Below, piece by piece: positions 11,012-63,294 of a DNA stretch of 64,000 nucleotides. Below the pieces are notes generated by a model. That model ran no database searches, had not been told where the DNA came from, and saw only the letters and a program-made list of their open reading frames with translations. The first letter of the stretch is position 1, and each line of letters starts with the position of its first letter. This DNA comes from an uncultured Acetobacteraceae bacterium (lineage in GTDB: Bacteria; Pseudomonadota; Alphaproteobacteria; Acetobacterales; Acetobacteraceae). The stretch spans positions 56,800 to 120,799 of the forward strand of contig CAXTVZ010000001.1 of the NCBI GenBank assembly GCA_964247685.1, given 5' to 3'. The translations under genes were made by a program, and so were the position numbers.

Positions 11012-11241
11012 TGGCGCGCGCAGCCGCGAAGGCCGTGCGTGCGAGGCCGGCGCACCAGCACTCGACCTGCCAGGACGACCGCCGCAAGCGCGGCGCCGAC
11101 GGCACCTGGCGCACCGAACGTTGCAACGTGCCGCTGTTTGCCGAGGCGCACCGCGCCGCCGGGCGGTGCCAGTGGTGCATCGACGGGCACAACCACGCGG
11201 ACAACGAAGCGGTATCGGCGCTCAAAGGAGCGTTGCCTTGA
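11011..11241 (+). CDS. small Cys/His-rich protein
   Basis: TGATG overlap with Rieske CDS; 76 aa. Confidence 0.45.
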   Translation: MARAAAKAVRARPAHQHSTCQDDRRKRGADGTWRTERCNVPLFAEAHRAAGRCQWCIDGHNHADNEAVSALKGALP

Positions 11242-11606
11242 ACGTGCATTATCCGATCATGTGTGATTTTCAGTTGCTCACTGAGCCCGGTGATAAGCCG
11301 TTCGTGCTCGGCGTGCGGCGCTTCACACAGGGCGATTACGGTGCGGTCACACGGATGATCGTGTCGCAATCGTGTGAGGACAAACACGGCTTGCTGGACG
11401 TCGAAGCATCGCCGCGGATGCTGCGCAAGCTTGCCGCGTGGGCGGCGTCAGCCGCAGACGCGGTCGAGCGTCACGCTGTCGATACAGCGGAGCGTCGCAC
11501 GGCCGATGCGCGCGAAAGGCTGCTCCACGCTTCAGAAAAGCTTGCGCAAAGCGGGGGGCCGAACTGGGCGAGCGATTTTCTTCCAACTGACACAATCGAA
11601 AATTGA
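11238..11606 (+). CDS. hypothetical protein
   Basis: TTG 11238 overlaps previous stop, AGGAG 8 nt upstream; GTG 11244 or ATG 11262 possible. Confidence 0.5.
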   Translation: MNVHYPIMCDFQLLTEPGDKPFVLGVRRFTQGDYGAVTRMIVSQSCEDKHGLLDVEASPRMLRKLAAWAASAADAVERHAVDTAERRTADARERLLHASEKLAQSGGPNWASDFLPTDTIEN

Positions 11607-12025
11607 AAGACCAGCAAGTGCTCAAACCCATTGAAGGCATGTCGGCGTTCGGCGAGCGGCTACGCGGCGCTTGGCGCGTGCTGACCGGACAGTGCATGGC
11701 GCAAAGCGCCGCCGACGCGTGGCGCGACACCGAGGCCTACGGCCAAGTCATACGGCTGTCGTTCCAGCTGCGTGTGCACGAGGTAGCCTGGATGAAGGTG
11801 GCGCACATCACCAGCCAGACGCACCGCGGCAAGGAAAACGCCTGGGCGGCGCTGTCGCGAGTCAACGCCATCGCGCACGAATCACGCGGCGCGTTGGCTT
11901 TCAACGCGAAGCGGCCCGGCTTCCTACGCGACGCGTTGTCGCGCGCCGAAGCCGAAGTCAGAGAGATCGACGCGGCGGCGGCCAGCGTGCCGAACGCGCA
12001 GCTTAAGACGGCAGCGGCAACGTGA
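11603..12025 (+). CDS. hypothetical protein
   Basis: TTG overlaps previous stop; alternative ATG 11639. Confidence 0.5.
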   Translation: MKDQQVLKPIEGMSAFGERLRGAWRVLTGQCMAQSAADAWRDTEAYGQVIRLSFQLRVHEVAWMKVAHITSQTHRGKENAWAALSRVNAIAHESRGALAFNAKRPGFLRDALSRAEAEVREIDAAAASVPNAQLKTAAAT

Positions 12026-43525: not shown

Positions 43526-43885
43526 GTGCCGCTCGGCGTTCGCCGCGCTGCCGAGCGGTTCGCGCGGCGCTGGCCGCAGTTTGGCACGCCGGAGGGCGCC
43601 TACTACGCCTGCGAGGACGCGAGCCGCTTGTTCGCGATGCACACGCGCGGCGCGGTCGTCGTGCACGCGCTCGGCAGCCGCCGGCCGTTTCCGCGCGCCT
43701 ACGCTGAGTGGCGGGAATACGGCACGCTGGACCGCAACCTCTATCACGTCGTCTGCCGGATCGGCCGCTGGTATGTCGACGTGACGCGCAGGCAGATGGA
43801 GCCGAATGCTGCATACCCATTCATCCAGCACGAGCGGCAATTTCGGCGCGAGTGGCGTCAGATCAGCACAGAGGCACTTGTATGA
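43526..43885 (+). CDS. hypothetical protein
   Basis: GTG 43526 after AAGG; internal start of ORF 43460..43885. Confidence 0.5.
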   Translation: MPLGVRRAAERFARRWPQFGTPEGAYYACEDASRLFAMHTRGAVVVHALGSRRPFPRAYAEWREYGTLDRNLYHVVCRIGRWYVDVTRRQMEPNAAYPFIQHERQFRREWRQISTEALV

Positions 43886-44232
43886 GCGAGAACGACAACT
43901 CGGCAGACGCCGACAATAAGGTCTTCGACCTGATGGCCGAGATCTATCCGGAGCCGGCAAAGTACCGCCTAGGCAAGTTTACGGTGTCGCTTCACCTGAT
44001 CGAAAAACGCTTGGACCTCGTCAAAGCCATGGTCGAGGGCTGCGTGGTCGTCAGCGCTAAAGTCTGCTGGCACCGCAACGCCATCGAATACGTGGCCCTG
44101 CACGACGATTTCGACTTGTGCACAAAAGTCGAGACAACACCTTATTACTCCGCCGCTATGGCGTGCCTAGAAGGCCGAACGTTCAAGCGCGAGTGGAGGC
44201 GCGAGGCCGGCTCCGTCTGGCTTCCGCTGTAA
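43882..44232 (+). CDS. hypothetical protein
   Basis: ATGA overlap. Confidence 0.5.
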   Translation: MSENDNSADADNKVFDLMAEIYPEPAKYRLGKFTVSLHLIEKRLDLVKAMVEGCVVVSAKVCWHRNAIEYVALHDDFDLCTKVETTPYYSAAMACLEGRTFKREWRREAGSVWLPL

Positions 44233-44238
44233 CGAAGC

Positions 44239-44267
44239 TTGCAAGCGCGGTGACTTTGCGCGAACGT
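44239..44267 (+). promoter_or_regulatory. promoter-like repeat, variant spacer
   Basis: TTGCAA-gcgcggtgactttgcgc-GAACGT, 6 nt upstream of leader box. Confidence 0.4.
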
Positions 44268-44273
44268 AACGCC

Positions 44274-44295
44274 GCCAGGGGCGCCGTGCCCGGGC
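44274..44295 (+). promoter_or_regulatory. leader stem-loop box
   Basis: GCCAGGGGCGCCGTGCCCGGGC, ends 18 nt before GTG 44314. Confidence 0.55.
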
Positions 44296-44313
44296 GAAGC
44301 CGAGGACCTGCCC

Positions 44314-47300
44314 GTGCAGCAACTTAACTTTTTTGAGGTGCAGGCGCCGCGCGTCAGCGCCGCAACGCCGCCGGCGGAAAACTTTTCCCTACTCGACTCA
44401 GCCGAGCAAGGCCGCGGCCTGGCAAAGACGTGGAAGGAGCGCGCGGCCGACAACATCGCCGCCATCCGGCTTGCGCAACGCATAGAGGCCGAGTTCCGGC
44501 CCGCAACGCTGGCCGAGTGTGCCCAGCTCATCCGCTTCGTCGGCTTCGGCGCGTCGGACTTGGCAAACAGCCTGTTTCCCACAAAGGCCGGCGCTTTCGG
44601 TCAGGGATGGGAACAGCTGGGCCAGGCGTTGCACGCAGTGGCCGGCCGCGAGGTGACGGCGCTCGCGCGCGCAACGCAGTACGCGCACTTCACCCCGGAA
44701 TACATCGTCACGGCCATGTGGGATGCGGTGCGCCGCTTCGGCTTCGATGGCGGCCGCGTGCTCGAACCAGGCTGCGGCACCGGCCTGTTCCTGGCGCTGG
44801 CGCCAAAAGCCATCGCGCAGGCGTCGGTCTTCGTGGGCATCGAGCGTGATCCGATAACCGCTCGCATCGCGCGGTTGCTGCATCCTTTGGCGCACATCGA
44901 GACGGCTGATTTCGGGCAACGTCACCTGCCGCGCTGCGCCGAGCCGTTCGACCTGGTGATTGGCAACCCGCCGTTCTCCGACCGGACGGTAACGGCCGAC
45001 GACGCCGAGGGTGCCGGCAAGCTCGGGCTGTCGCTGCACGAGTTCTTCATCCTGCGCGCCGTGCGCATGCTGCGGCCTGGCGGGCTCGGTGCCTTTGTCA
45101 CCAGCCGCTACCTCATGGACAAGGGGTCGGATCTTGCCCGCGCGGTGCTGGCCGCCGATGCCGAGCTGCTCGGCGCGATCCGGCTGCCGCGCGGCAGCAT
45201 GCGCGCCGCAGCGGGCACCGACGTGGTGGTCGACCTGCTGTTCCTTCGCCGGCGCGATAAGCGGGGCGCGCACCCGCTGAGCAAGCCCTGGGTCGCGCTT
45301 GGCAGCGTTGCCTGCACCGGCCTGGCGACGAGTTGCACCGTCAACAGCTTCTTCGCCGAGACGCCCGAGGCGGTGCTCGGCAACCATGCCTTTGTCAGCA
45401 GCCAGCACGGGCCGGCCTACACGTGCGCGCCGGAGCCTGGCCTGGACCTGCCGGGCGAGCTCGCGGCCGCTGCCGAGCGTCTAGCGTCCGAGCAGGCGTT
45501 CTGGCCAGCGGACGCCGTGCTGGACGCCGACGAGGCCGACCCCGTGCCCGACGTGAACGTGCGCAGCGTGGCCGACGGAGGCACCCTGCGCGAAGGCTCC
45601 TACTTCGTGGACACGGATCGGCTCTGGCAGATCGTGGACGGCCGCGCGGTGGCGGTGGCGGTCAAGGCGGGCCGCGGCACCGAGGGCATCTTCCAGAGCC
45701 ACGCGGCCATCATCCGCGGCCTCATCCCGATCCGCGACGCGGTGCGCGACGTGCTGCGGGCGCAGGTGCGCAACTCGGCGTCATGGGCGGCCGAAGCGGC
45801 GCGCCTTCGGGGCGCCTACGACGCCTTTGTCAAGAAGCACGGGCCGATCAACCACACAGTGCTGTCCACCACCACGGTCGACGACGTGGTGCGGGTGACA
45901 GACCCGGAGACCGGGGAGGTGCTCAGCGAGACGCTGGAGCAACGCGAGCGCACCACCGCGCGGCGGCCGAACCTCGCGCCGTTTCTCGACGACCCTGACG
46001 TCTGGCTGGTGTCCTCGATTGAGAGCTACGACGTCGACACCGGCATCGCCAAGCCGGGCGCGGTGTTTACCGAGCGGGTCATTCGCCAGCCCACCGAGCC
46101 GGTCATCGCCAGCGCCGCCGACGCCCTGGCGGTGGTGCTCAACGAGGTGGGCCGGGTCGACATCCCGCGCATCGGCGGGCTCATCTTCAAGCCGCCGGCG
46201 GAGGTCATACGCGAGCTCGGCGCCGCCATCTTCGAGGACCCGGAGACGGAGCAGTGGGTCACTGCGGACGCCTATCTGTCCGGCGCGGTGCGCGGCAAGC
46301 TGAAGACCGCGCAACGCGCGGCGGCGGAGGCCGGCGCCCGCTACCAGCGCAACGTCGAGGCGTTGGAGGCCGTGCAGCCGACCGACCTCAAGCCGTCGGA
46401 AATTACCGCTAGGCTGGGCGCGCCGTGGGTGCCCGTGCCGGTCGTCGAGCGCTTCATTCTCGAGGTCATGCGGGTGCGCACGACCGTCCACCACACGCCC
46501 GCCGTGGCGTCGTGGACCGTCGAGCAGCCGCCGTTCAAAGGCAACGCAGCCAGCACGTCGGAGTGGGGCACGCAGCGCCGGCACGCCGGCGACCTGCTGG
46601 AGGACGCGCTGAACGCGTCCATCCCACGAATTTACGACGTCGAGCGCGACAGTTCCGGCAAGGAGATCCGCACTTTCAACGCGGCTGCCACCGAGGCGGC
46701 AAAGGAGAAGCTCGAAAAGATCAAGCGGGCCTTTGAGGCTTGGGTCTGGAAAGAGCCGTCGCGCGCCGACAGGCTGGTTCGGATCTACAACGACGACTAC
46801 AACAACTTGGTGCCGCGCCACTTCGACGGCGCGCACCTGCAGTTGCCCGACGCCAGCGGCATCATCGAGATGCGGCCGCACCAGAAGCGCGGCGTCTGGC
46901 GCGTCATCACTGCGGGGTCCACCTACCTTGCGCACGCCGTGGGTGCCGGCAAAACCTTCCTGATGGCCGCGGCGCTGATGGAGCAGAAGCGGCTCGGCCT
47001 TGTCAGCAAGCCCATGATGGTCGTGCCCGGGCACTGCCTGGCGCAAGCCGCGCGCGAGTTCCTGATGCTCTACCCGACGGCGCGCATCCTGGTCGCCGAC
47101 GAGACCAACTTCGTCAAGGAAAAGCGCCAGCGCTTCATCGCGCGCGCGGCCACCGGCAACTGGGACTGCATCATCCTGACGCACTCCGCCTTCAAGTTCA
47201 TCCCCGCGCCCGGCGCGTTCGAACGCAGCATGATCAACGAGCAGCTGGCCAACTACGAGGAGCTCCTGCTGTCGGTCGACGAAAACGACCGCGTGGGCCG

Positions 47301-49374
47301 CAAGCGGTTGGAGCGGCTGAAAGAGGGCTTCGAGGAACGCCTTGACCGGCTGTCCTCGCGCAAGGACGACGTGGTCACCATTGCCGAAATCGGCGTGGAT
47401 CAGATCGTCGTCGACGAGGCGCAGGAGTTCCGCAAGCTCTCGTTCGCAACCAACATGGGCACGCTGCGCGGCATCGATCCGGACGGCTCGCAGCGCGCTT
47501 GGGACCTCTACGTCAAGGTCAAGTTCATCGCCCAGTCGAACCCGACGCGGCCGCTGATCATGGCGTCCGGCACGCCTATCACGAACACCATGGGCGAGCT
47601 GTTCACCCTCATGCGCTTCATGCACGAGGTAGGGCTGATCGACCGGCTGGTGCACCAGTTCGACGCCTGGGCGTCGACCTTCGGCGAGACGCGCACCGAT
47701 CTCGAGCTGCAGCCATCGGGCCTCTACAAGCCGGCCACCAGGTTCAGCCAGTTCGTCAATGTGGCAGAGCTGATCGCGATGTTCCGCGCGGTGGCCGACG
47801 TCGTGCTGAAAGACGACCTGCGCGGCTACATGAAGCTGCCGCGCATCAAAGGCGGCAAGCGGCAAATCCTGACGTTCAAGCCGACGCCCGCCTTCCGCGC
47901 CTACCAGAAGGAACTCGCGCACCGCATCGCCCTGATCGAGCAGCGCAAGGGGATGCCGAAAAAAGGCCAGGACATCATCCTGTCGGTCATCGGCGACGGC
48001 CGGCACGCGGCGCTGGACATGCGCTTCACCGGCCCGGACGCCGAGAACGAGCCCGAAAACAAGCTGAACGGGCTCATCGCGAACGCCTTTAAAATTTGGC
48101 AGGAGACCAGCGGCTACCGCTACACAAACCCGGCAACCGGGGAAGCCTATCCGCTGCCCGGTGCCACGCAGATGATCTTTTCCGACCTCGGCACTCTGAA
48201 CGCCGTGGCAACGCGTGGCTTCTCCGCCTACGCGTGGATCCGCACCGAGCTGATCCGGCTCGGCGTGCCGGCGGAGCAGATCGCCATCATCCACCACTAC
48301 AAGCGCGCGGCCGAGAAGCTGGCGCTTTTTGCCGACCTTAACAGCGGTCGAAAGCGCTTCGTCATCGGTTCGAGCGAAAAGATGGGCACCGGCGTCAACG
48401 CGCAGCAACGTCTGATCGCGATGCACCACCTTGACGTTCCCTGGCTGCCGTCCTGGATCGAACAGCGGGAAGGGCGCATCGACCGGCAGGGCAACCAGAA
48501 CGACGAAATCGGCCTGTTTGCCTATGCGACGACTGGCAGCATGGACGCGCCAATGTGGCAGTTCAACGAGAGAAAGGCGCGTTTCATTGCCGCGGCGCTG
48601 TCGGGCGACCGCTCCATCCGCCGGCTCGACGACGTCGGCGACACCGTCGACCAGTTTGCTTTTGCCAAGGCGCTATCGAGCGGCGACGCGCGCCTGATGC
48701 AGAAGGCCGGGCTCGAAGCTGAGCTTGCCCGCCTGCATCGGCTGAAGGACTCGCACTTCGACGACCAATACAACGTGCGTCAGCGCGTCGACGGCGCGCG
48801 CGGCACGATCGTGCGCTGTCAAAAGCGCATTCCGCTGCTGGAGATGGACCTCGACAATCGCGTGGACACCCGCGCGGACCTGTTCCAGATGACGGTTGAC
48901 GGCAAGGCCTACACCGAGCGCAAGGCGGCCGGCGCCGCCTTGCTGGCGTTCGCGCGCGCCCGCAAAGCCGGCATGCAGGACGGCGAGTGGACTATCGCGC
49001 AGCTGGGCGGGTTCGCCGTGAAGCTGGACAGCGAAGTCCTTGTCGAGCGGTCGCGCGGCAAGGAGGTCGCCCGGTCGTGGTTCGCCCACCTTTGGATCAT
49101 GTTTAGCGCCGAGCCGACGAGGGTATCGGCGGACGTGGCGGCCCTAGAGCCGCTCGGCTTGGTCGCGCGGCTGGAGAACGCCGTGCGTGCTCTCGACTAC
49201 GACCTGACAACGACGCAGACGCGCCTGGCGGACGCCGAGAAGGACCTCCGGGAGTTCGAGGCGATGCTGCAGGACACCTTCGAGTTTCAGGACGAACTCG
49301 ATGCCAAAACCGACGAGCTGTTGACCCTCAACGAGTCCCTGGCGCGCAACACGGAAGCCCCTGTTTTGCTCTAG
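44314..49374 (+). CDS. N6-adenine DNA methyltransferase fused to SNF2-family helicase (DarB-like giant protein)
   Basis: LEPGCGTGLFLA, VIGNPPFSD; AVGAGKTFLM, VVDEAQEFRK, MASGTPITNTMGELF, QREGRIDRQGN; 1686 aa. Confidence 0.9.
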   Translation: MQQLNFFEVQAPRVSAATPPAENFSLLDSAEQGRGLAKTWKERAADNIAAIRLAQRIEAEFRPATLAECAQLIRFVGFGASDLANSLFPTKAGAFGQGWEQLGQALHAVAGREVTALARATQYAHFTPEYIVTAMWDAVRRFGFDGGRVLEPGCGTGLFLALAPKAIAQASVFVGIERDPITARIARLLHPLAHIETADFGQRHLPRCAEPFDLVIGNPPFSDRTVTADDAEGAGKLGLSLHEFFILRAVRMLRPGGLGAFVTSRYLMDKGSDLARAVLAADAELLGAIRLPRGSMRAAAGTDVVVDLLFLRRRDKRGAHPLSKPWVALGSVACTGLATSCTVNSFFAETPEAVLGNHAFVSSQHGPAYTCAPEPGLDLPGELAAAAERLASEQAFWPADAVLDADEADPVPDVNVRSVADGGTLREGSYFVDTDRLWQIVDGRAVAVAVKAGRGTEGIFQSHAAIIRGLIPIRDAVRDVLRAQVRNSASWAAEAARLRGAYDAFVKKHGPINHTVLSTTTVDDVVRVTDPETGEVLSETLEQRERTTARRPNLAPFLDDPDVWLVSSIESYDVDTGIAKPGAVFTERVIRQPTEPVIASAADALAVVLNEVGRVDIPRIGGLIFKPPAEVIRELGAAIFEDPETEQWVTADAYLSGAVRGKLKTAQRAAAEAGARYQRNVEALEAVQPTDLKPSEITARLGAPWVPVPVVERFILEVMRVRTTVHHTPAVASWTVEQPPFKGNAASTSEWGTQRRHAGDLLEDALNASIPRIYDVERDSSGKEIRTFNAAATEAAKEKLEKIKRAFEAWVWKEPSRADRLVRIYNDDYNNLVPRHFDGAHLQLPDASGIIEMRPHQKRGVWRVITAGSTYLAHAVGAGKTFLMAAALMEQKRLGLVSKPMMVVPGHCLAQAAREFLMLYPTARILVADETNFVKEKRQRFIARAATGNWDCIILTHSAFKFIPAPGAFERSMINEQLANYEELLLSVDENDRVGRKRLERLKEGFEERLDRLSSRKDDVVTIAEIGVDQIVVDEAQEFRKLSFATNMGTLRGIDPDGSQRAWDLYVKVKFIAQSNPTRPLIMASGTPITNTMGELFTLMRFMHEVGLIDRLVHQFDAWASTFGETRTDLELQPSGLYKPATRFSQFVNVAELIAMFRAVADVVLKDDLRGYMKLPRIKGGKRQILTFKPTPAFRAYQKELAHRIALIEQRKGMPKKGQDIILSVIGDGRHAALDMRFTGPDAENEPENKLNGLIANAFKIWQETSGYRYTNPATGEAYPLPGATQMIFSDLGTLNAVATRGFSAYAWIRTELIRLGVPAEQIAIIHHYKRAAEKLALFADLNSGRKRFVIGSSEKMGTGVNAQQRLIAMHHLDVPWLPSWIEQREGRIDRQGNQNDEIGLFAYATTGSMDAPMWQFNERKARFIAAALSGDRSIRRLDDVGDTVDQFAFAKALSSGDARLMQKAGLEAELARLHRLKDSHFDDQYNVRQRVDGARGTIVRCQKRIPLLEMDLDNRVDTRADLFQMTVDGKAYTERKAAGAALLAFARARKAGMQDGEWTIAQLGGFAVKLDSEVLVERSRGKEVARSWFAHLWIMFSAEPTRVSADVAALEPLGLVARLENAVRALDYDLTTTQTRLADAEKDLREFEAMLQDTFEFQDELDAKTDELLTLNESLARNTEAPVLL

Positions 49375-49379
49375 TGACA

Positions 49380-49392
49380 CAACAAAATGTTG
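49380..49392. promoter_or_regulatory. CAACA-N3-TGTTG palindrome
   Basis: gacaCAACAaaaTGTTGcg; TTGCGT-N17-CATATT with spacer CTCGCCC-ggt-GGGCGAG. Confidence 0.55.
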
Positions 49393-49461
49393 CGTCTCGC
49401 CCGGTGGGCGAGCATATTATCGACACACCGAGGCAACATCGCCAGGTGCAGCGCGGAGCGA

Positions 49462-49584
49462 ATGATGACGGCAGGATCCCCCGGCGAAAACCCCAATCCC
49501 CCGTATCAGGACGACCCGGTGAGGGTGCTGCTGCGCGTCGCCTTCATCTTCACCGTCTGCAACTACATCTGGCTGCACCTCTGA
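49462..49584 (+). CDS. small hydrophobic-tail peptide
   Basis: 40 aa; GGAG upstream; stop overlaps next start (TGATG). Confidence 0.35.
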   Translation: MMTAGSPGENPNPPYQDDPVRVLLRVAFIFTVCNYIWLHL

Positions 49585-50480
49585 TGGCGGCAGGCCTGTT
49601 GGCACACCGAAGCGGTGCGCAGGCGTCGTTGCTCGGGCCGGTCGCGTCGTCGCGCCGCCCGTCAGCCGAGGGCACCGCCGGCGCGGGCCTGAACCCGGAT
49701 CTTGACCAGTACTTCACCCCGACATGGGTGGCCGAGGCGCTGGTTGAGCAGTTTTTCCCAACGCTGGCGACCGATTTCGTTGTGGACGCCGGGTGCGGGC
49801 ACGGCGCGTTTTTGGGCGCCCTTCCGGCCAGCGTGGACGCGCTCGGGGTTGAGATCGACCCCGAGGCCGCCGCCATCGCTAGGCGCAACACCGGGCGACT
49901 GGTCCTGACGGGCGACTTTTTGGACGTCGAGCTCACGCGCCAGCCCACCATGATCATCGGCAACCCGCCGTTCCGCGAGGCGATCCTCGACGCGATGCTG
50001 GCGCGCGCGCACCTGCTGCTGCCGCGGGGCGGCCAGGTCGGGTGGGTGCTGCCGGCCTACGTCTTTCAGACGCCGTCGCGCGTGCTGGCGATGGCCGAAC
50101 GGTGGAGCATCGAGAGCAAGGCCATGCTGCCGCGCACGCTCTACCGCGGGCTGAAGGAGCCGCTCGCCTTCATGGTGTTCACCAAGGACGGCCGCAGGCT
50201 GCTGCAGGGCTTCGCCCTCTATCGGGAGGCGGCCGAGGTGGCCGCGCTGAGCGAGGCCTACCGGGTGGTGCTGTCTCGCGCGCCGCGCTCGGCGTGGGTG
50301 CGGTGCGTGGCCGATGCGGTGCGCACGATGGGCGGCACGGCGACGCTGCCCCAGATCTACGCCGAGATCGGCGGCCGCCGGCCGTCGCAGACGACCTGGT
50401 GGCGCGAGAAGGTCCGGCAGGTCGCGCAGGCACACCTCGTCCGGCTCGACAGCGGCACTTACGGGTTGGCGGCGAGGTGA
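49584..50480 (+). CDS. N6-adenine DNA methyltransferase (NPPF type) with C-terminal wHTH-like tail
   Basis: DQYFTPTWVA, VVDAGCGHGAF, IIGNPPFRE. Confidence 0.75.
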   Translation: MAAGLLAHRSGAQASLLGPVASSRRPSAEGTAGAGLNPDLDQYFTPTWVAEALVEQFFPTLATDFVVDAGCGHGAFLGALPASVDALGVEIDPEAAAIARRNTGRLVLTGDFLDVELTRQPTMIIGNPPFREAILDAMLARAHLLLPRGGQVGWVLPAYVFQTPSRVLAMAERWSIESKAMLPRTLYRGLKEPLAFMVFTKDGRRLLQGFALYREAAEVAALSEAYRVVLSRAPRSAWVRCVADAVRTMGGTATLPQIYAEIGGRRPSQTTWWREKVRQVAQAHLVRLDSGTYGLAAR

Positions 50481-51802
50481 CTCGGGTGGCGGCGGATTTG
50501 CCTTTTGCGGAGTTGCTGCGGGCCGAGGCGGCCAAGGTCGCCTTGCGGCTGCAGGAGTTGGACCGGCAGGCGCAGGCGATCCGCGCAGAGGCGACAGGCC
50601 TGATCGCCAAACAGGAGGCTATGCGACCGCTGCTCGACGCCTACCAGGGCGAGTTCGAGACGACGCCGCCCGTGCGGCTGCTGACCGTCGACCCGGGTGT
50701 TTCGGCGCCGCAGGCGGCGCGCAGAAGCGGCCCGCCGGCGCGCATGTGGACGGAAGAGCGAAAGACGCTGCTGGCCGAGCTCTGGCCAAAGGGGGCTTCG
50801 TCACGCGCGGTGGCGGACGCGCTGAACAGGCTGCCGGGTACCGCCATCGAGCCCAAGCGGGTGGGTCCCAAGGCAGCCATTCTGCGGATCTACCGGAGCC
50901 CGGATGGGGGGCACCCCGGCCGGCGACCCGCGCTGACCGCGCCGGGCGGCGTCACGCCGGTGCCGGCGACGCGCCGGCCTGCTGGTCGAGTAGCGCGCTT
51001 TGCCAACAAGACGAGTCACCCAGCCAACCGCGAAGCCGCCTGCCTGCCGGCCGACCACTGGGCGATACAGGCGAGCGCATCGCAGTTCCGGACGCGGGTG
51101 TTCGCGCCCGCAGACGTGCCGCGCGTGCTGATTTCCGGGGAGAACTCGGCCAAGGTCGGCAAGCGCGTCACCAAGGGCCCGTGGGCGGGCATGCAACTCC
51201 ACACGCTCACGCTTGAGGAGCGGGCGACGTGCCCGAGCAGCTGCGGCCTGCTGCGCGAGTGCTACGGCAACGCCATGCCGTTCGCCCGTCGGCTGAAGCA
51301 CGGCCAGGCGCTGGTCGATCGGCTGGACCAGGAGCTGCGACTCAAGGCCGCCGAATATCCGGCGGGCTTTGTCGTGCGCCTGCACGTGCTGGGCGATTTC
51401 TACTCCGAAGACTACGTCTCGACCTGGGGCGGCTGGCTGGCGGACATCCCGCAGCTGCGCGTCTTCGGCTACACCGCCCACCAGGCGCGAACGCCGATCG
51501 GCGCGATGCTGCTGCGTCTCAACGAGGTATTCGCTGGCAGGTGCGCAATTCGCACCAGCGTCGAGCCCGACGCCGACCCCGAACCGATGCAGGCCACAAC
51601 GATCTGGCGTCAGCCGGAGGGCCGCGTCGTGCCGGAGGGCACCATCTGCCCGGCGATGACCGGCGGCACGGAGGCCTGCGCCACCTGTGGGCTTTGCTGG
51701 CACCCTGTGGCGGCCGCGCGGCGCATCGTCTTCATCGGCCACGGCATGACTCGCCGGTCGAGCGACGCGCAGCCTTTGGACGGCCAGGAGCAAGCGGCGT
51801 GA
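50477..51802 (+). CDS. GcrA-like DNA-binding domain fused to Cys-rich C-terminal domain
   Basis: GTGA overlap; MWTEERKTLLAELWPKGASSRAVADALN matches GcrA N-terminus (SWTDERVSTLKKLWLDGLSASQIAKQLG); CPSSCGLLRECYGN and CPAMTGGTEACATCGLCWH. Confidence 0.6.
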   Translation: MTRVAADLPFAELLRAEAAKVALRLQELDRQAQAIRAEATGLIAKQEAMRPLLDAYQGEFETTPPVRLLTVDPGVSAPQAARRSGPPARMWTEERKTLLAELWPKGASSRAVADALNRLPGTAIEPKRVGPKAAILRIYRSPDGGHPGRRPALTAPGGVTPVPATRRPAGRVARFANKTSHPANREAACLPADHWAIQASASQFRTRVFAPADVPRVLISGENSAKVGKRVTKGPWAGMQLHTLTLEERATCPSSCGLLRECYGNAMPFARRLKHGQALVDRLDQELRLKAAEYPAGFVVRLHVLGDFYSEDYVSTWGGWLADIPQLRVFGYTAHQARTPIGAMLLRLNEVFAGRCAIRTSVEPDADPEPMQATTIWRQPEGRVVPEGTICPAMTGGTEACATCGLCWHPVAAARRIVFIGHGMTRRSSDAQPLDGQEQAA

Positions 51803-52071
51803 GAGCGGTCCAGGCGCTTAGTGCGCAAGCGGCGCGGTGCCAGCCTGGCAGGCCGGCCGTGCTCACGGCCGATCAGGTCGCCGTCGGCGACATGCTGATG
51901 CGCGACGGCTACCCGGTCGAGGTGCGGCAGAAAATGTTGAGCCCGGACGGCCAGGTTTGCACGCTCGCCTGGGGCGAGGCGCGGGGCGAAATGATCATCG
52001 TGCTAACGGCCACGCCGCTCAGCGTGGTGGTTGGCGTCTGTTACGCGGGGGCTGTCTGGCATGAGCGTTGA
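51799..52071 (+). CDS. hypothetical protein
   Basis: GTGA overlap. Confidence 0.45.
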   Translation: MRAVQALSAQAARCQPGRPAVLTADQVAVGDMLMRDGYPVEVRQKMLSPDGQVCTLAWGEARGEMIIVLTATPLSVVVGVCYAGAVWHER

Positions 52072-52606
52072 AGACCTGCTGCCGACGGTGCCGGTGAGGT
52101 TCGACCTAGCGGCGGCCGAGCACGCGGCCGACGCCTGGGGCTGCAACTGCGGACCTGGTGCGCTTGCGGCGATGACTGGGCTGACGCTTGACGAGGTGCG
52201 CCCTTGTCTCGGCGACTTCGAGGTGAAGCGCTACACGAACCCCACCCTGATGTTCGAGACGCTGCGGCGGCTCGGGGTGTCCTACACCGTAGAGCGTCGC
52301 CTGCCGCTTGACTGGCCGCGGCACGGCTTGGTCCGGATTCAATGGGGCGGCCCATGGATGGCCGACGGCGTGCCTATCGGCGCGCGCTATCGGCAGACGC
52401 ACTGGGTGGGCGCCCGTCACACTCGCGGTCGGGCGGAGGTGTTCGACATCAACTGCATCAACGTCGGCGGCTGGGTGCCGATGGACACCTGGACGGCCGT
52501 GGTAGTGCCCTGGCTGCTACGCGAAGCCGTGCCGAGAGCCGACGGCTCGTTCTCGCTAACGCACGTCGTCGAGGTGAGCACCGCGCTGGCCGGTCGCGAG
52601 CATTGA
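52061..52606 (+). CDS. papain-fold (C39-like) cysteine peptidase-like protein
   Basis: AWGCNCGPGALAAMTG candidate Cys, QTHWVGA candidate His. Confidence 0.45.
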   Translation: MSVEDLLPTVPVRFDLAAAEHAADAWGCNCGPGALAAMTGLTLDEVRPCLGDFEVKRYTNPTLMFETLRRLGVSYTVERRLPLDWPRHGLVRIQWGGPWMADGVPIGARYRQTHWVGARHTRGRAEVFDINCINVGGWVPMDTWTAVVVPWLLREAVPRADGSFSLTHVVEVSTALAGREH

Positions 52607-52668
52607 GCGTGTCCGCTGGCTTAGGTATGCCTTGCGCCGGCACGGGTGCATCTGCACAACTGGATACC

Positions 52669-53448
52669 ATGGCAGATCAACCGCAAGGCGACAGGGCCAG
52701 CGGGCGCGACATATCGATGAGTTCGACGCGCCTTCGGGAAATCCTGCACAATCTGAGCTGGTCGCAGAACGAGCTGTCCGTCGTGCTCGACTTTCGCGAC
52801 ACCGCGTCGATCCGGGCGATGGCGCGCGGCAAGAAGCGAGTCTGGCCCGTCATCGCCGCGTGGCTTGAACGACTGGACGCGTTCCAGGCGGCAAGCGGCT
52901 TCCCGGTCGGTATCCTCTGGTGGAGCGAAGAGTACCCGGAGGCTTTCGCACGCGCGGCCGACACGGCGCCAGACGAGGGCGTGAGGGCTTGGCTGGCCAG
53001 CGTCGTCGCGTTCCACGCCGCGCACCGGTGGCCGTCGGAGGACTGGAAGGTGGACGAGGAGGCGATGGCCGACGGCAGCCAGGCCGTGGCGGATCTTCGC
53101 ACGCTGGGCTTGCGCCTCTACGGCGACATCGGGCGGGCGCTGCGGCTCGACATGCGCTACGCGAAAGCCTGGCAGCGGCGTCCGCGCAACATGGTCAGCG
53201 AGGTGCTAGACTGGCTCAACGAGCTCGCCGAATACAAGCGGCACACGGGCTTCCCGATGGAGCTGCTAGTCCTGAACTGGAATCTGTCTGCCACGTTCGC
53301 CGGCGCGTTGTCGGCTGGAACTGCAGTGCCGGCTCAAGCGGGCGCCTGGATTGGCGATGCCCTCGAGTTCTACCAACGCAACAACGTGCCGGTCGGCTTC
53401 GAGCCCGAGCAGGACGCTGAAGAAGGGTTTCAAGCAACCGACGCGTAG
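52669..53448 (+). CDS. hypothetical protein with internal duplication
   Basis: Two similar modules (...VIAAWLERLDAFQAASGFPVGILWW / ...VLDWLNELAEYKRHTGFPMELLVLNW). Confidence 0.5.
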   Translation: MADQPQGDRASGRDISMSSTRLREILHNLSWSQNELSVVLDFRDTASIRAMARGKKRVWPVIAAWLERLDAFQAASGFPVGILWWSEEYPEAFARAADTAPDEGVRAWLASVVAFHAAHRWPSEDWKVDEEAMADGSQAVADLRTLGLRLYGDIGRALRLDMRYAKAWQRRPRNMVSEVLDWLNELAEYKRHTGFPMELLVLNWNLSATFAGALSAGTAVPAQAGAWIGDALEFYQRNNVPVGFEPEQDAEEGFQATDA

Positions 53449-53474
53449 CCAAGCGGGTGCTGACCGGCCGCTGC

Positions 53475-53487
53475 CAACAAAATGTTG
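53475..53487. promoter_or_regulatory. CAACA-N3-TGTTG palindrome
   Basis: CAACAaaaTGTTG; TTGCGA-N17-TAACGC. Confidence 0.55.
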
Positions 53488-53520
53488 CGACCGCTTGCGG
53501 ATGCGAGTAACGCTCACTTA

Positions 53521-53542
53521 GCCGAGGGGGCCGTCCCCGGGC
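53521..53542 (+). promoter_or_regulatory. leader stem-loop box
   Basis: GCCGAGGGGGCCGTCCCCGGGC, ends 17 nt before ATG 53560. Confidence 0.6.
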
Positions 53543-53559
53543 GAACCGGAGAGCGTGCC

Positions 53560-53730
53560 ATGCACAGCAGCGCAAAGCTTCAGCCTTTTCCGCGTCGAGA
53601 CTCGCAGGTGCGTGCCACCCGCGGCCGTCACCGCAAGCACCTCGCACTTTGGTCGCGCATCGAGGCGCGCTGCAGGCGCAGACGCGCTCGGCGCGCTTGG
53701 CGAGCGGCTGCTCGACGCATCGTTCGCTGA
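53560..53730 (+). CDS. small Arg-rich protein
   Basis: 56 aa, 17 Arg and 3 Lys (20 of 56 basic); position fixed by promoter/box layout. Confidence 0.4.
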   Translation: MHSSAKLQPFPRRDSQVRATRGRHRKHLALWSRIEARCRRRRARRAWRAAARRIVR

Positions 53731-54098
53731 TGGTGTTTCGGGCAAGATACAGGTGGCGGCAGGCCGGAACCGTTCTCACGATCATCGATGAGAACGGCCC
53801 GGTGTCCGTCACCAACGACATCGAGCGCGTGCTTGCCGACTTGAGCGAGCGCGGCGTAAGCGCACTGGACGAGCTCGTCATCCTCTACCGGGACAGCATG
53901 GGGTCGTGGTGCGGGGTCGGCACGATGGGCGGTCGGTTTACCGACTTCGTCTCCGTCGGTCCCTTTTGGGGCTGTGAGCGTGCGTCAGTTGTCGAACTGC
54001 TAAAGCAACGCGGGCGTCAATCGACGTCGGCCGTGCTCAGTCTTTGCTCGGCTTGCCAACTTCGCTCCTCTTCCTGCGGTTGCGCTCACGACGGCTGA
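53730..54098 (+). CDS. hypothetical protein
   Basis: TGATG overlap; VLTIIDENGPVSVTNDIERVLADL; 3' end overlaps convergent CDS by 62 nt. Confidence 0.5.
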   Translation: MVFRARYRWRQAGTVLTIIDENGPVSVTNDIERVLADLSERGVSALDELVILYRDSMGSWCGVGTMGGRFTDFVSVGPFWGCERASVVELLKQRGRQSTSAVLSLCSACQLRSSSCGCAHDG

Positions 54099-54369
54099 TT
54101 TCTTTCTGCACGGCGTTCCTGACGAAATCAGTCCTGTCTTCGTGCGGCATCAATACCTCCGCAATCTTCGCGAACGTTCCCTCGGCGAACCGCGCAGTCA
54201 TGTCCTCGGCCCACTTCTTCTTGCGTCCCACAGAACGGGGGCTAGCTGATACGAGAAACTCCGTCAAAATCGCCCCATATGTCATACGACTTATTGCAGC
54301 CTTATCACATATGAGGTATCGCGACAAATACCAGCGCGTTTCTGCGCTTAATGTAGGCTGCTTGTTCAT
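54037..54369 (-). CDS. ribbon-helix-helix-like DNA-binding protein
   Basis: MTARFAEGTFAKIAEVLMPHEDRTDFVRNAVQKEISRRE; low GC. Confidence 0.5.
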   Translation of the reverse strand: MNKQPTLSAETRWYLSRYLICDKAAISRMTYGAILTEFLVSASPRSVGRKKKWAEDMTARFAEGTFAKIAEVLMPHEDRTDFVRNAVQKEISRRERNRRKRSEVGKPSKD

Positions 54370-54752: not shown

Positions 54753-55006
54753 GCCGTCACGAAGCCGAGGCGCTAAACCCTGACCATTTTGTCCGCGTTG
54801 GTTGGGACCCGCCGCTGCAAACCTTCTTCATCCAGGTGCACGACAGCAGGGTGCCTCACGACGAGGAGTCGGTCGTGCACTGGCAGGGCTGCGGCTACGC
54901 CGAGCTGCCGACGATCGAGAGCCTGGCCGAAGCGGGCAGGGGCTATACGACGGTGCCCGAACAGCTGCACCTCACACTGCAAGAGGACAAGCTGCTGAAT
55001 CGATGA
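54749..55006 (+). CDS. hypothetical protein
   Basis: GTGA overlap. Confidence 0.5.
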   Translation: MSRHEAEALNPDHFVRVGWDPPLQTFFIQVHDSRVPHDEESVVHWQGCGYAELPTIESLAEAGRGYTTVPEQLHLTLQEDKLLNR

Positions 55007-55605
55007 GCCACAGCTTGGCCGACCTGCTGACCGGCATAGAGCCGCCCCGGCACGACACCGGGTGCAAGCGCCTGCTGCGCTGGCCGGCCGACACGCGCAC
55101 GACAGCCGTGTTCGACGGTCCGGGCGACTGCTACCGCTATGCTCTGACTCAGACTTGGGATCCGGCGCGGCCGTTGGCGATGTTCGCGCTGATGAACCCG
55201 AGCGGCGCCAGCATAGATTTCGGTGATTCGACGCTGCTGCGCACCGGCTGGTTCGCCCGCCGCTGGGGTTACGGCGGCCAGCTCATCGCCAACGCGTGCG
55301 CCTGGCGGCGCACTGACAACGAGGATCTGCTGGCGGTGCCCGACCCTGCCGGCCCGCAAAACCTGCACTGGGTCTGCCGGCTGGCGGCCCAGGCGCAGCT
55401 TGTCGTCATCGGCCACGGTCAGCTGCCCGCCAAGTTGCAGCACCATGCGGACGGCATGGTCGCGGCGTTGCGCGCCGCCGGGCACGACCTGCACGTGTTC
55501 GGCCTGTCGAAAGCCGGTGTCCCGGTGCATCCCCTGGCGCGCGGTAAGCACAGGCTTTCCGACGAGACGAAGCCGATCCGGTGGGCGCTCGACGCGCCCC
55601 TATGA
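55003..55605 (+). CDS. DUF1643-like protein
   Basis: YRYALTQTWD, MFALMNPSGAS, DSTLLRTGWFARRWGYGG, GVPVHPLA. Confidence 0.65.
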   Translation: MSHSLADLLTGIEPPRHDTGCKRLLRWPADTRTTAVFDGPGDCYRYALTQTWDPARPLAMFALMNPSGASIDFGDSTLLRTGWFARRWGYGGQLIANACAWRRTDNEDLLAVPDPAGPQNLHWVCRLAAQAQLVVIGHGQLPAKLQHHADGMVAALRAAGHDLHVFGLSKAGVPVHPLARGKHRLSDETKPIRWALDAPL

Positions 55606-61448: not shown

Positions 61449-61889
61449 ATGGACGAAACACCGGAAACGCTGCCCGCCAGAAAGCCGCGACGCGGACGAC
61501 CGAAGTTCGAGCCCACCCCGGCGCAACGAGTGACAGCGCTCGCGTTGAAAGCCGCTGGCTCGCCGCACGCCGTGATCGCGTCGATCATGGAAATTCCGCT
61601 GCGGACCTTCGACCGCCATTTCAAGCGGGAGATCGCGCAAGGCCACGAGGAGGTCACCGCGCGCATTGCGCACGGCCTGATTGGACGGGCGCTAGGCGGA
61701 GACAACGACGCGGCCAAGTTCTTCCTGCGAACCCGTGCCGGCTGGACGACGCGCACGGAGGTGACAGGCGCCGAGGGCGGTCCGATTGACATCCGCAACA
61801 TCTCCACTGATCAGCTCACTGCAGCGCTTATCGCCTTCGCAGAGAGCGACGGTGCTGGCGAGGATGGCGCAGGAGCTGAGGAGGCGTAA
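61449..61889 (+). CDS. terminase small subunit-like protein
   Basis: RGRPKFEPTPAQR, HTH segment, AAKFFLRTRAGW; directly upstream of large terminase. Confidence 0.6.
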   Translation: MDETPETLPARKPRRGRPKFEPTPAQRVTALALKAAGSPHAVIASIMEIPLRTFDRHFKREIAQGHEEVTARIAHGLIGRALGGDNDAAKFFLRTRAGWTTRTEVTGAEGGPIDIRNISTDQLTAALIAFAESDGAGEDGAGAEEA

Positions 61890-63294
61890 GACCTGGACGC
61901 CCTTCGCCGGCCCGCAGACGGCGGCGCTCAACAGCGCCGCGGACATCCTGTTCTACGGCGGGGCCGCCGGCGGCGGTAAGACCGACCTCATCTGCGGCGC
62001 GGCCATTACGCGGCATCACAAGTCGATCATCTTCCGGCGCGAGTACGGCGAGCTTGCCGGCATCATGGACCGCGCCGCCGAGCTGCTCGAGGGCCGTGGC
62101 TCCTACAACGGGCAGCGCCGGCTCTGGAAGATCGACGACCAGCAGCGCCGCATGGAATTTGGCGCGGTCCAGTTCGAACAGGACGTGCGCAAGTTTCAGG
62201 GCCGCCCGCACGACCTCAAAGCCTTCGACGAAATCACCAATTTTACCGAGTCGCAGTTCCGCTTCCTGATGGGCTGGAATCGAAGTGCCCGCCCCGGGCA
62301 GCGCTCGCGCGTGATCTGCACCGGCAACCCACCGACCACGGCCGAGGGCGACTGGGTCATCGAGTTCTGGGGGCCCTGGCTTAACAAGACACACCCCAAT
62401 CCGGCGGTTCAGGGCGAGCTGCGCTGGTTCGCGACGGTCGCTGGCAAAGACGTCGAGGTTGCGGATTCGACGCCCTTCAAGGTCAAGGGTGAGGAAGACC
62501 TGATCACGCCGAAGTCGCGGACGTTCATCCGCGCTCGCGTGCAGGACAACCCGGTCTACATGGCGTCGGGTTACCTGGCGACCTTGCAGGCGCTGCCCGA
62601 GCCGCTGCGCTCGCAGATGCTGTTTGGCGACTTCTCCGCCGGCCAGGACGACGCGCCGCGCCAGGTCATTCCGACGGCGTGGGTGCTCGCGGCACAGGCG
62701 CGGTGGACGGAGAAGCCGCCTGCCCCGATTTCTGCGCTGGGCGTCGACGTGGCCCGCGGCGGTGCCGACAAGACCGTCATCACGCCCCGCCACGGCGTCT
62801 GGTTCGGCAAGCAGCTGTCGCATCCCGGCAGCACCACCCCGGACGGTCGCGTGGTCGCGCAGATGTGCCTGGAGGCCATCCCAACCGGCACCGCACCGTC
62901 GGTGCAAATCGACATCACCGGCGTCGGGTCGAGCCCCTACGACATGGCGCTGATGCTTGGCATGCGCGCGGCGGCCATGAACGGCTCCGCCCGCAGCGAT
63001 GCCACCGACAAGAGCGGGCGGTTGGGCTTTTTAAACGCCCGCGCCGAATGGTGGTGGCTGCTGCGCGAGGCGCTCGACCCTGACGTGGGCGAGGACCTCG
63101 CCATTCCGCCGGACCGCGAACTGCTGGCCGACCTGACCGCGCCGCGCTGGCAGCCCTGCACTAAGGGCATCCAGATCGAGAGCAAGGACGACATCAAGTC
63201 GCGCATCGGCAGGTCGCCCGATAAGGGCGAGAGCCTTGTCTACGCTTTCGGGCGCGCGACCCAGGCCTACGACGATACGATGAGCTGGGTCTGA
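61864..63294 (+). CDS. terL: terminase large subunit
   Basis: Walker A LFYGGAAGGGKTD, KAFDEITNF Walker B-like, C-terminal nuclease-sized domain; start ATG 61864 inside ORF 61786..63294. Confidence 0.9.
   Translation: MAQELRRRKTWTPFAGPQTAALNSAADILFYGGAAGGGKTDLICGAAITRHHKSIIFRREYGELAGIMDRAAELLEGRGSYNGQRRLWKIDDQQRRMEFGAVQFEQDVRKFQGRPHDLKAFDEITNFTESQFRFLMGWNRSARPGQRSRVICTGNPPTTAEGDWVIEFWGPWLNKTHPNPAVQGELRWFATVAGKDVEVADSTPFKVKGEEDLITPKSRTFIRARVQDNPVYMASGYLATLQALPEPLRSQMLFGDFSAGQDDAPRQVIPTAWVLAAQARWTEKPPAPISALGVDVARGGADKTVITPRHGVWFGKQLSHPGSTTPDGRVVAQMCLEAIPTGTAPSVQIDITGVGSSPYDMALMLGMRAAAMNGSARSDATDKSGRLGFLNARAEWWWLLREALDPDVGEDLAIPPDRELLADLTAPRWQPCTKGIQIESKDDIKSRIGRSPDKGESLVYAFGRATQAYDDTMSWV

Follow-up and report, generated by a model that had tools for sequence, protein, structure and literature searches.

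A predicted GcrA-type DNA-binding module within a three-part GP88/DUF7227 protein of a phage-like contig from an uncultured Acetobacteraceae bacterium

Introduction

Why would a helix-turn-helix (HTH) resembling that of GcrA lie in the middle of a long protein that ends in two clusters of cysteines? The question is raised by an open reading frame (ORF) at positions 50477-51802 (+) of a 64,000-nucleotide stretch of DNA from an uncultured Acetobacteraceae bacterium (assembly GCA_964247685.1, contig CAXTVZ010000001.1, here called contig C1). This whole stretch is called the window, and coordinates refer to it unless a contig or a locus is named. An original prediction, made from the sequence alone, had described the ORF as an unusual fusion of a coiled-coil N-terminus, a GcrA-like HTH and a C-terminal GP88-type domain with two cysteine clusters, and had proposed that it may couple methyl-DNA recognition to an enzymatic or redox-sensing activity. 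Is the ORF one gene or two? Is the central segment really a piece of GcrA, and is it joined to GP88 elsewhere? What might such a protein do?

Results

The frame 50477-51802 is open throughout, and its translation is 441 amino acid residues long. In a codon-position GC plot, the G+C content at third codon positions (GC3) of this frame rises at about 50490 and holds at 0.77-0.93 through the stop codon. The GC-rich third position up to about 50480 is that of the frame of an upstream methylase gene. Since the GC3 coding signal lies in the same frame, the N-terminal 88 residues are translated with the rest of the protein. A mechanical ORF of 586 residues, reaching upstream to 50042, was rejected as a high-GC artefact in which the methylase gene is read in another frame. 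As for the start codon, GTG 50486 is more likely than the alternative GTG 50477. A Shine-Dalgarno (SD)-like GAGGTG lies six bases 5′ of GTG 50486, and the public gene call P0002, which is 438 residues long and 100% identical, starts at this codon. GTG 50477 forms a GTGA overlap with the stop codon of the upstream methylase gene. The gene is placed at 50486..51802 (+), with a product of 438 residues, or 441 residues if GTG 50477 is the start; residue numbers throughout are those of the 441-residue version, with GTG 50477 as residue 1. A GANTC site (GACTC) was found at 50479-50483, between the SD-like GAGGTG and GTG 50486.

Could the ORF be two genes with an internal start, as the original prediction had allowed? 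M90 sits directly before W91 of the WTEER sequence, an arrangement resembling the M-x-W-T beginning of canonical GcrA. An internal start at ATG 50744 was rejected: no stop codon separates the parts, the GC3 of the 5′ part is that of coding sequence, and no SD-like sequence was found upstream of ATG 50744. The orthologues P0032, P0090 and P0095 and the L047 protein keep the order of helix, HTH and GP88 without a Met before the Trp. The ORF is a single gene encoding a three-part protein. Scans of the whole protein with NCBIfam and PADLOC gave zero matches.

The central part, residues 90-140 (50744..50896, +), is predicted to be a GcrA-type HTH. It has helices at residues 93-105 and 109-117, then an LPG insertion, and then a weak third helix at about residues 131-137. 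Taken alone, the simplest searches gave weak evidence for this assignment. Residues 90-119 matched positions 2-31 of the Pfam GcrA model (PF07750) with an expect value (E) of 0.036 and 14.9 bits, under the cut-off of 26.9 bits, and a plain sequence search of the PDB returned the GcrA DNA-binding domain 5yiu at E 1.1. The same slot of the orthologues matched Pfam GcrA at E 3.5e-5 (P0090), 0.021 (P0095) and 0.024 (P0032). I then built a hidden Markov model (HMM) from 10 bona fide GcrA DNA-binding domains of the host genus and its relatives. When 185 GP88 proteins were searched with this GcrA-DBD (DNA-binding domain) HMM, residues 91-116 of the study protein were found at E 9.4e-5, and 13 other proteins were found at E < 0.005. 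A profile of eleven GP88-associated HTH segments, which is not fully independent, unlike the GcrA-DBD HMM, since the segments were chosen partly by eye for the W-T-x-E-R signature, ranked 5yiu (4e-5) and 7ye1 (6e-5) at the top of the PDB, with region 4 of extracytoplasmic function (ECF) sigma factors next (4e-4 to 1e-3). In hhalign, the profile of GP88-associated HTHs aligned with the GcrA DNA-binding alignment at 96.6% probability. An AlphaFold2 (AF2) model of residues 85-152 alone has three helices and a low-confidence pLDDT (AF2's per-residue confidence score) of 64. Its best match among 350,542 chains was 5yiv, the GcrA DNA-binding domain with methylated DNA, at a non-significant E of 0.36, and this ranking of GcrA in first place is suggestive. 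Judged by these comparisons, the central segment is a GcrA-type DNA-binding module, as had been claimed, and no unrelated HTH family fitted it better in Pfam, in the PDB profile search or in the fold ranking.

How much of GcrA is present? The likeness to Caulobacter GcrA (PF07750; 5yiu, 5yiv, 7ye1), which came top by profile, profile-profile and fold ranking, lies in helices 1 and 2, which carry the signature WT[DE]ER..L..LW..G.S..IA..L. The LPG insertion after helix 2 is common to the study protein, P0006, P0062, P0069 and P0093. The third-helix stretch of GcrA, T-[RK]-N-A-V-[IV]-G-K-x-H-R-L-G-L, is replaced by LPGTAIEPKRVGPKAAILRIY in the study protein. The third helix at about 131-137 is short, with a pLDDT below 50 in the AF2 model, and the alignments with GcrA end after helix 2. 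By its sequence, the recognition helix appears to diverge from that of GcrA. Recognition of methylated DNA, which had been proposed, is not supported, since only helices 1 and 2 are closely GcrA-like, and the third helix, for which the model is poor, seems to differ. The sigma70-binding motif of GcrA, C.WP.G.P...F.FC...PYC..H..AY, is absent from all 441 residues, in line with the claim that the canonical GcrA C-terminus is missing. This motif is present in the full GcrA of the phage itself and in P0074, P0077 and P0088. In the study protein, GP88 occupies the place of the sigma70-binding half. Since that half is missing, the protein is not a GcrA; it borrows the DNA-binding module alone. It further differs from GcrA in that the HTH is internal, with a coiled coil before it and GP88 after it.

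The C-terminal part, residues 172-425 (50990..51751, +), was assigned to GP88/DUF7227 by Pfam, PHROG and fold. The family is named after gene 88 of L5-like mycobacteriophages. The study protein passed the cut-offs of both Pfam models, with 29.6 bits against 24.4 for GP88 (PF17338) and 29.4 bits against 27 for DUF7227 (PF23872), and it matched PHROG 2554 at 1.7e-25. A further family entry, PHROG 1392, corresponds to the same group, with which the study protein shares the cysteines, the H.LGDF motif and the predicted fold. The domain was modelled by AF2 with a pLDDT above 95. A fold search of BFVD gave 11 matches at E <= 0.001, the best at 1.7e-19. The named ones are all "Gene 88 protein" or "DUF7227 domain-containing" and come from bacteriophages and one Nitrosopumilus virus. 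On this evidence from sequence and model, the study protein is a member of GP88/DUF7227. Among solved structures, a Foldseek search of the PDB with the full model gave no match below E 0.088. In PDB sequence searches with the protein and with a 117-sequence profile, the GP88 part returned noise only (Klenow fragment, E 0.5; Shisa, E 1.2). No paper mentioning PF17338, PF23872 or DUF7227 was found, and literature matches for "GP88" concern mainly progranulin or unrelated phage gene numbers.

Sequence searches found 920 relatives, and alignments of smaller sets show where the domain is constrained. A cysteine triad, C252-x3-C256-x5-C262 (51230..51262, +), lies in the loop after the strand at residues 240-244 (DSSP on the model), the first of an alternating strand-helix core. 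The motif H303-x-L-G-D307-F (51383..51400, +) consists of invariant columns and follows the second strand. A cysteine tetrad, C391-P-x8-C401-x2-C404-x2-C407-W (51647..51697, +), is conserved in relatives. All seven cysteines, three and four, are invariant in an eight-sequence alignment and in an alignment of phage homologues, down to 32-44% identity. In the 117-sequence alignment, the triad, C391, C401 and C407 are invariant, and C404 is kept in at least 90%. Also conserved are LEER, R272, R301-L-H303-x-L-G-D307-F, Y313, W317, R359-x-S361 and H422. The motifs LEER.TCP..C.....CYG, RLH.LGDF, CP...C..C..CW and F..H are kept in 117 relatives, 123 cluster representatives and 8 homologues from phages and viral contigs. 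The GP88-type domain with two cysteine clusters thus agrees with what the original prediction had read from the letters.

The N-terminal part also agrees with it. Residues 10-60 (50504..50656, +) form one helix with a pLDDT of 92-96 in the AF2 model made with the 117-sequence alignment. This helix has seven unbroken heptads (L14, V21, L28, I35, L42, M49 and Y56), each with an Ala or Leu four residues on, and the heptad score was equalled by 1 of 5000 shuffles of the segment. It is a predicted coiled coil and a likely oligomerisation element. A comparable N-terminal helix is present in P0032, P0090, P0095, P0075, P0061 and L047, which are relatives of the same architecture. The sole match of a word-based search with residues 1-175 was the study protein itself; by that search, nothing closely related to the N-terminal part has been recorded. 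Between the HTH and GP88 lies a linker rich in Pro, Gly and Arg (residues 141-171; 50897..50989, +), with a pLDDT below 50, no secondary structure and no conservation among relatives.

Is the fusion common? Among 1.84 billion proteins, the GP88 profile found 2,535 cluster representatives (50% identity) at E <= 0.001 and 768 at E <= 1e-30, and a pattern scan of IMG/VR found at least 586 confirmed GP88 loci. About three quarters of the closest GP88 representatives carry extensions. Extensions of at least 100 residues were counted in the 132 top representatives with placeable motifs: 26 have one at the N-terminus, 45 at the C-terminus, 30 at both ends and 31 at neither. In Pfam scans of 117 and 90 GP88 members, the partner domains were almost all DNA-binding: MarR, LexA-type, IclR, HTH_24, HTH_11, Cro, ArsR, OmpR-type, ParB, the ParB-like DUF6551, GcrA and sigma region 4. 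Apart from these, the listed partners were HerA (DUF87), a CCCH zinc finger and YdaS_toxin, once each. In one protein among the 90 long representatives, GP88 is joined to a complete ECF sigma factor (Sigma70_r2, 1e-13; Sigma70_r4_2, 2e-14); this architecture would be compatible with GP88 acting as a regulator or in an anti-sigma-like way.

At E < 0.01, the GcrA-DBD HMM picked out about 18 (about 12%) of the top 150 representatives, the HTH being nearly always N-terminal to GP88. In P0074, P0077 and P0088, GP88 is followed by an entire GcrA with the C-terminal motif of that protein, and in P0006, P0062, P0069 and P0093 the LPG variant of the HTH is C-terminal to GP88. Since the HTH is N-terminal in most proteins and C-terminal in others, the union of GP88 and the GcrA-type HTH arose in both orders. 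The fusion had been called unusual. It is instead ordinary within the GP88 family, being one case of GP88 joining DNA-binding modules. I found no description in the literature of a GcrA-type module that tethers GP88, yet the arrangement is common in sequence data. A different conserved C-terminal module, Y/F-x-E-I-K-x-W-A-A-H-[HY]-G-I-x-[FY]-D-G-S...N-x-x-R-K, is shared by the long GP88 proteins P0004, P0008, P0053, P0062, P0070 and P0093; it is absent from the study protein and has no Pfam match.

In what company are GP88 genes found? Seven contigs were read by look-up, and 65 IMG/VR loci were clustered by all-against-all BLAST. The setting is consistently DNA replication and modification. 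In temperate phages, GP88 comes after the cI/Cro(/CII) switch, and a gene for DnaB, a beta clamp or a methylase (N6/N4 or C5) is found one to four genes away. In lytic phages, the order is PolA, primase-helicase, small genes, GP88 (224-240 residues) and an SNF2 helicase. Stand-alone GP88 forms of 217-300 residues are common in phages. The linear genome deposited for Roseobacter phage CRP-114 (Autographiviridae) has GP88 as its gene 1 (L002 1-771), in the block ahead of the RNA polymerase gene.

The study gene itself is third in a row of overlapping genes. The row begins with a DarB-like methylase-helicase gene (44314..49374, +; phrog_10089 "DarB-like antirestriction", E 0, 1545 bits; Pfam N6_Mtase, ResIII and SNF2). 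The second gene (49374..50480, +) encodes a 368-residue methyltransferase of N6-adenine type, which matched Pfam MTS and Methyltransf_25, PHROG DNA methyltransferase families and PADLOC type II methyltransferase models. Its stop codon lies within the GTGA at 50477, between the SD-like sequence and GTG 50486. After the study gene comes a small ORF of 90 residues (51799..52071, +), whose GTG overlaps the stop codon of the GP88 gene (GTGA) and whose end overlaps the next gene (ATG 52061) by 11 bases. Judging from these overlaps, the row from the DarB-like gene onward is translationally coupled. A promoter and terminator scan of 43800-54200 gave results at chance level. GP88 is followed a few genes later by a DUF1643 gene, at 54802-55605 here and at 11026-11643 of locus L045 in an unrelated phage contig.

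The window corresponds to positions 56800-120799 of contig C1, which is 125,943 bp long and whose ends overlap by exactly 55 bases. Such an exact end overlap is the usual sign of a circular assembly. The contig is densely coding, with long structural-looking genes, and it has a large terminase gene (61786-63294), the DarB-like gene, a gene resembling that of phosphoadenosine phosphosulfate (PAPS) reductase and several methylase genes. Contig C1 has the appearance of a whole phage genome of about 126 kb, circular or circularly permuted, that was binned with an alphaproteobacterial metagenome-assembled genome. The GP88 gene is absent from all 40 related genomes, so it is an accessory gene. A full-length GcrA of 174 residues (106.9 bits in Pfam), carrying the C-terminal motif C.WP.G.P...FC...YC..H, is encoded on the same contig at 43692-44216 of C1 (locus L007 1489-2013), 12.6 kb before the window. 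A second full GcrA is encoded on contig C419, adjoining a gene that looks ArdC-like by eye. There are fewer GANTC sites than expected both in the phage (166 for an expected 250 or so) and in the remainder of the genome (3,342 for an expected 6,336); since the site is depleted in phage and host alike, these counts are uninformative.

Is there any sign of a known enzyme fold in GP88? Radical S-adenosylmethionine (SAM) proteins recur among the weak fold matches outside the family in both libraries. In the PDB, they are NifB (7jma and 7bi7), BtrN (4m7t) and viperin (6q2q), at E 0.28-0.8 and probability <= 0.47. In BFVD, about eight phage models of radical-SAM or iron-sulfur (Fe-S) oxidoreductases were matched at E 0.34-1.9. 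Other barrel-type enzymes were also among the weak matches. By DSSP, the strand at 240-244 leads into the Cys-triad loop; three helix-strand pairs come next, then two more strands and CxxCxxC. A radical-SAM-like partial barrel that has an auxiliary cluster would be expected to show this order. Like the radical-SAM enzymes with auxiliary clusters BtrN (4m7t) and NifB (7jma/7bi7), GP88 as modelled has a core of alternating strands and helices, three cysteines in the loop that follows strand 1, and more cysteines grouped towards the C-terminus. Unlike them, it has the spacing CX3CX5C and no Pfam radical-SAM match, and the fold match extends over about one third of the domain. An hhalign alignment of GP88 with radical-SAM proteins covers just strand 1 and the Cys motif. 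From the model, I hypothesize that GP88 may be an Fe-S enzyme, perhaps a radical-SAM-like one.

Discussion

What, then, might the protein do? The reading that I tentatively prefer, while giving it somewhat less than an even chance, is that it is an early-region phage protein built as a DNA-tethered enzyme working on or at DNA. This reading rests on the replication and modification setting of GP88, its near-exclusive fusion to DNA-binding modules and its enzyme-like conservation. The heptad helix probably pairs two or more chains, and the GcrA-type HTH probably positions them on particular DNA sites. GP88 would be the working part, and I infer for it an enzymatic or redox role, as had been proposed. 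Its seven cysteines may hold metal centers, the triad that follows strand 1 most likely carrying a [4Fe-4S] cluster and the CxxCxxC tetrad either zinc or another cluster. A catalytic pocket may be formed by the invariant residues E247/E248-R249, R272, R301-H303-D307, R359-S361 and H422. The action on DNA might be modification, repair or processing, possibly by radical-SAM-like chemistry. Expression alongside the DarB-like methylase-helicase and the second methylase would fit a role in preparing or protecting phage DNA.

Several observations weigh against this reading. Outside the GP88 family no significant fold match was found, and the radical-SAM matches span about 92 of 260 columns. The spacing of the triad is CX3CX5C, not the CX3CX2C of radical-SAM proteins, and it is C-x2-C-x5-C in RcZahn gp132. 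In Pfam, the study protein had no match to PF04055, Fer4_12, Fer4_14 or SPASM at E <= 1, and no radical-SAM family was listed among 207 relatives (117 at E <= 0.01 and 90 at E <= 0.001). A crude hhalign test of GP88 against 14 radical-SAM proteins of its own genome gave P 0.07 over 28 columns. No obligatory partner gene was found in the 65 loci, where the commonest neighbor is cI, in 16. No experiment on any member of the GP88 family was found in the literature.

A bolder form of the tethered-enzyme reading can be imagined, although I think it rather unlikely. GP88 would be an Fe-S (radical-SAM-like) enzyme of a class not recognised before, one that makes chemical changes to DNA and is aimed through swapped DNA-binding modules; here, the GcrA-type reader would target the sites marked by the co-expressed methylases. 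If this were true, an epigenetic mark would be coupled to a second DNA transaction.

Among the alternatives, a phage transcription factor is possible, if on the unlikely side. The coiled coil and the HTH would bind promoters, and GP88 would be a metal or redox sensor or a contact for RNA polymerase that replaces the sigma70-binding half of GcrA, in the manner of WhiB, FNR and IscR. The fusions of GP88 are a further point against the enzyme here, since partners typical of one-component regulators (MarR, IclR, LexA-type and OmpR winged HTHs) and, once, a complete ECF sigma factor would also suit a regulatory domain. The HTH of the study protein is itself of the GcrA or sigma region 4 type, sensing suits the cysteine clusters, and the phage, having a full GcrA, already interferes with the host circuit. 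However, the 31 of 132 representatives without an extension and the common stand-alone forms do not fit a regulator well. In a domain of 250 residues, about 20 invariant positions that are polar or glycine resemble an active site more than a sensor, and DNA metabolism is indicated by the ParB-like fusions and by the constant company of genes for replication and methylases.

It is quite improbable that the long, HTH-bearing GP88 is an origin-binding replication initiator or a helicase recruiter in which a zinc or Fe-S GP88 organises the replisome. In the temperate phage contigs L006, L047, L049, L058 and L105, a long GP88 does occupy the position of lambda O or P22 gp18, with Cro and CII ahead of it and DnaB one to four genes further on, and the GP88 of L005 adjoins a protein with a DnaA_N-like region. 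However, the study gene is preceded by the DarB-like gene and a methylase gene rather than by a helicase gene, and where a lytic phage already has its own PolA and primase-helicase, its GP88 is short and lacks a DNA-binding part. HTH_36 is a domain of phage replication proteins, and L044 has a separate HTH_36 protein near the GP88 gene. Invariant Glu, Arg, His and Asp residues would be unexpected in a scaffold.

Finally, a chance likeness to GcrA, or two genes divided at ATG 50744, can hardly be credited: the sub-threshold single-sequence Pfam match, the position of M90 and the pLDDT of the HTH-only model are in its favor, but GcrA came first in four independent tests, positional homologues reach Pfam GcrA at up to E 3.5e-5, and the coding signal and the three-part orthologues noted above speak for one gene.

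The tethered-enzyme reading has counterparts among known systems. Phage DNA-modifying enzymes are fused to DNA-targeting modules, as in proteins with a ParB-like domain and a methylase. GP88 resembles these ParB-methylase fusions in having a catalytic-looking domain with interchangeable DNA-binding modules, including DUF6551, and in lying in the early DNA-metabolism region near methylases. The study protein adds to the shared features of GP88/DUF7227 a coiled coil and a GcrA-type HTH. As for GcrA, whole homologues are known from phages: gp222 of phiCbK and its relatives are thought to reprogramme host replication genes (PMC3556154), and others are found in the Caulobacter phages Senya and Shash (PMC13459779). 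The study phage is similar to the phiCbK-type phages in being an alphaproteobacterial phage with a GcrA-type sequence, including a full-length GcrA. In contrast to the complete GcrA proteins of those phages, the study protein appears to reuse the DNA-binding module as a tether for another domain.

Conclusions

GP88/DUF7227 is a large family, found in phages both temperate and lytic as well as in at least one virus of archaea, and lies in the early DNA-metabolism region. The seven invariant cysteines, the enzyme-like polar residues and the near-exclusive DNA-binding fusions provide a testable handle on this family. The study protein is a convenient entry point, having a tether of GcrA type, whose DNA recognition is understood, and a gene row with methylases and a DarB-like anti-restriction gene. 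For the biology of GcrA, the finding shows that phages pass on not just whole GcrA genes but also the DNA-binding module as a part that can be separated from the rest.

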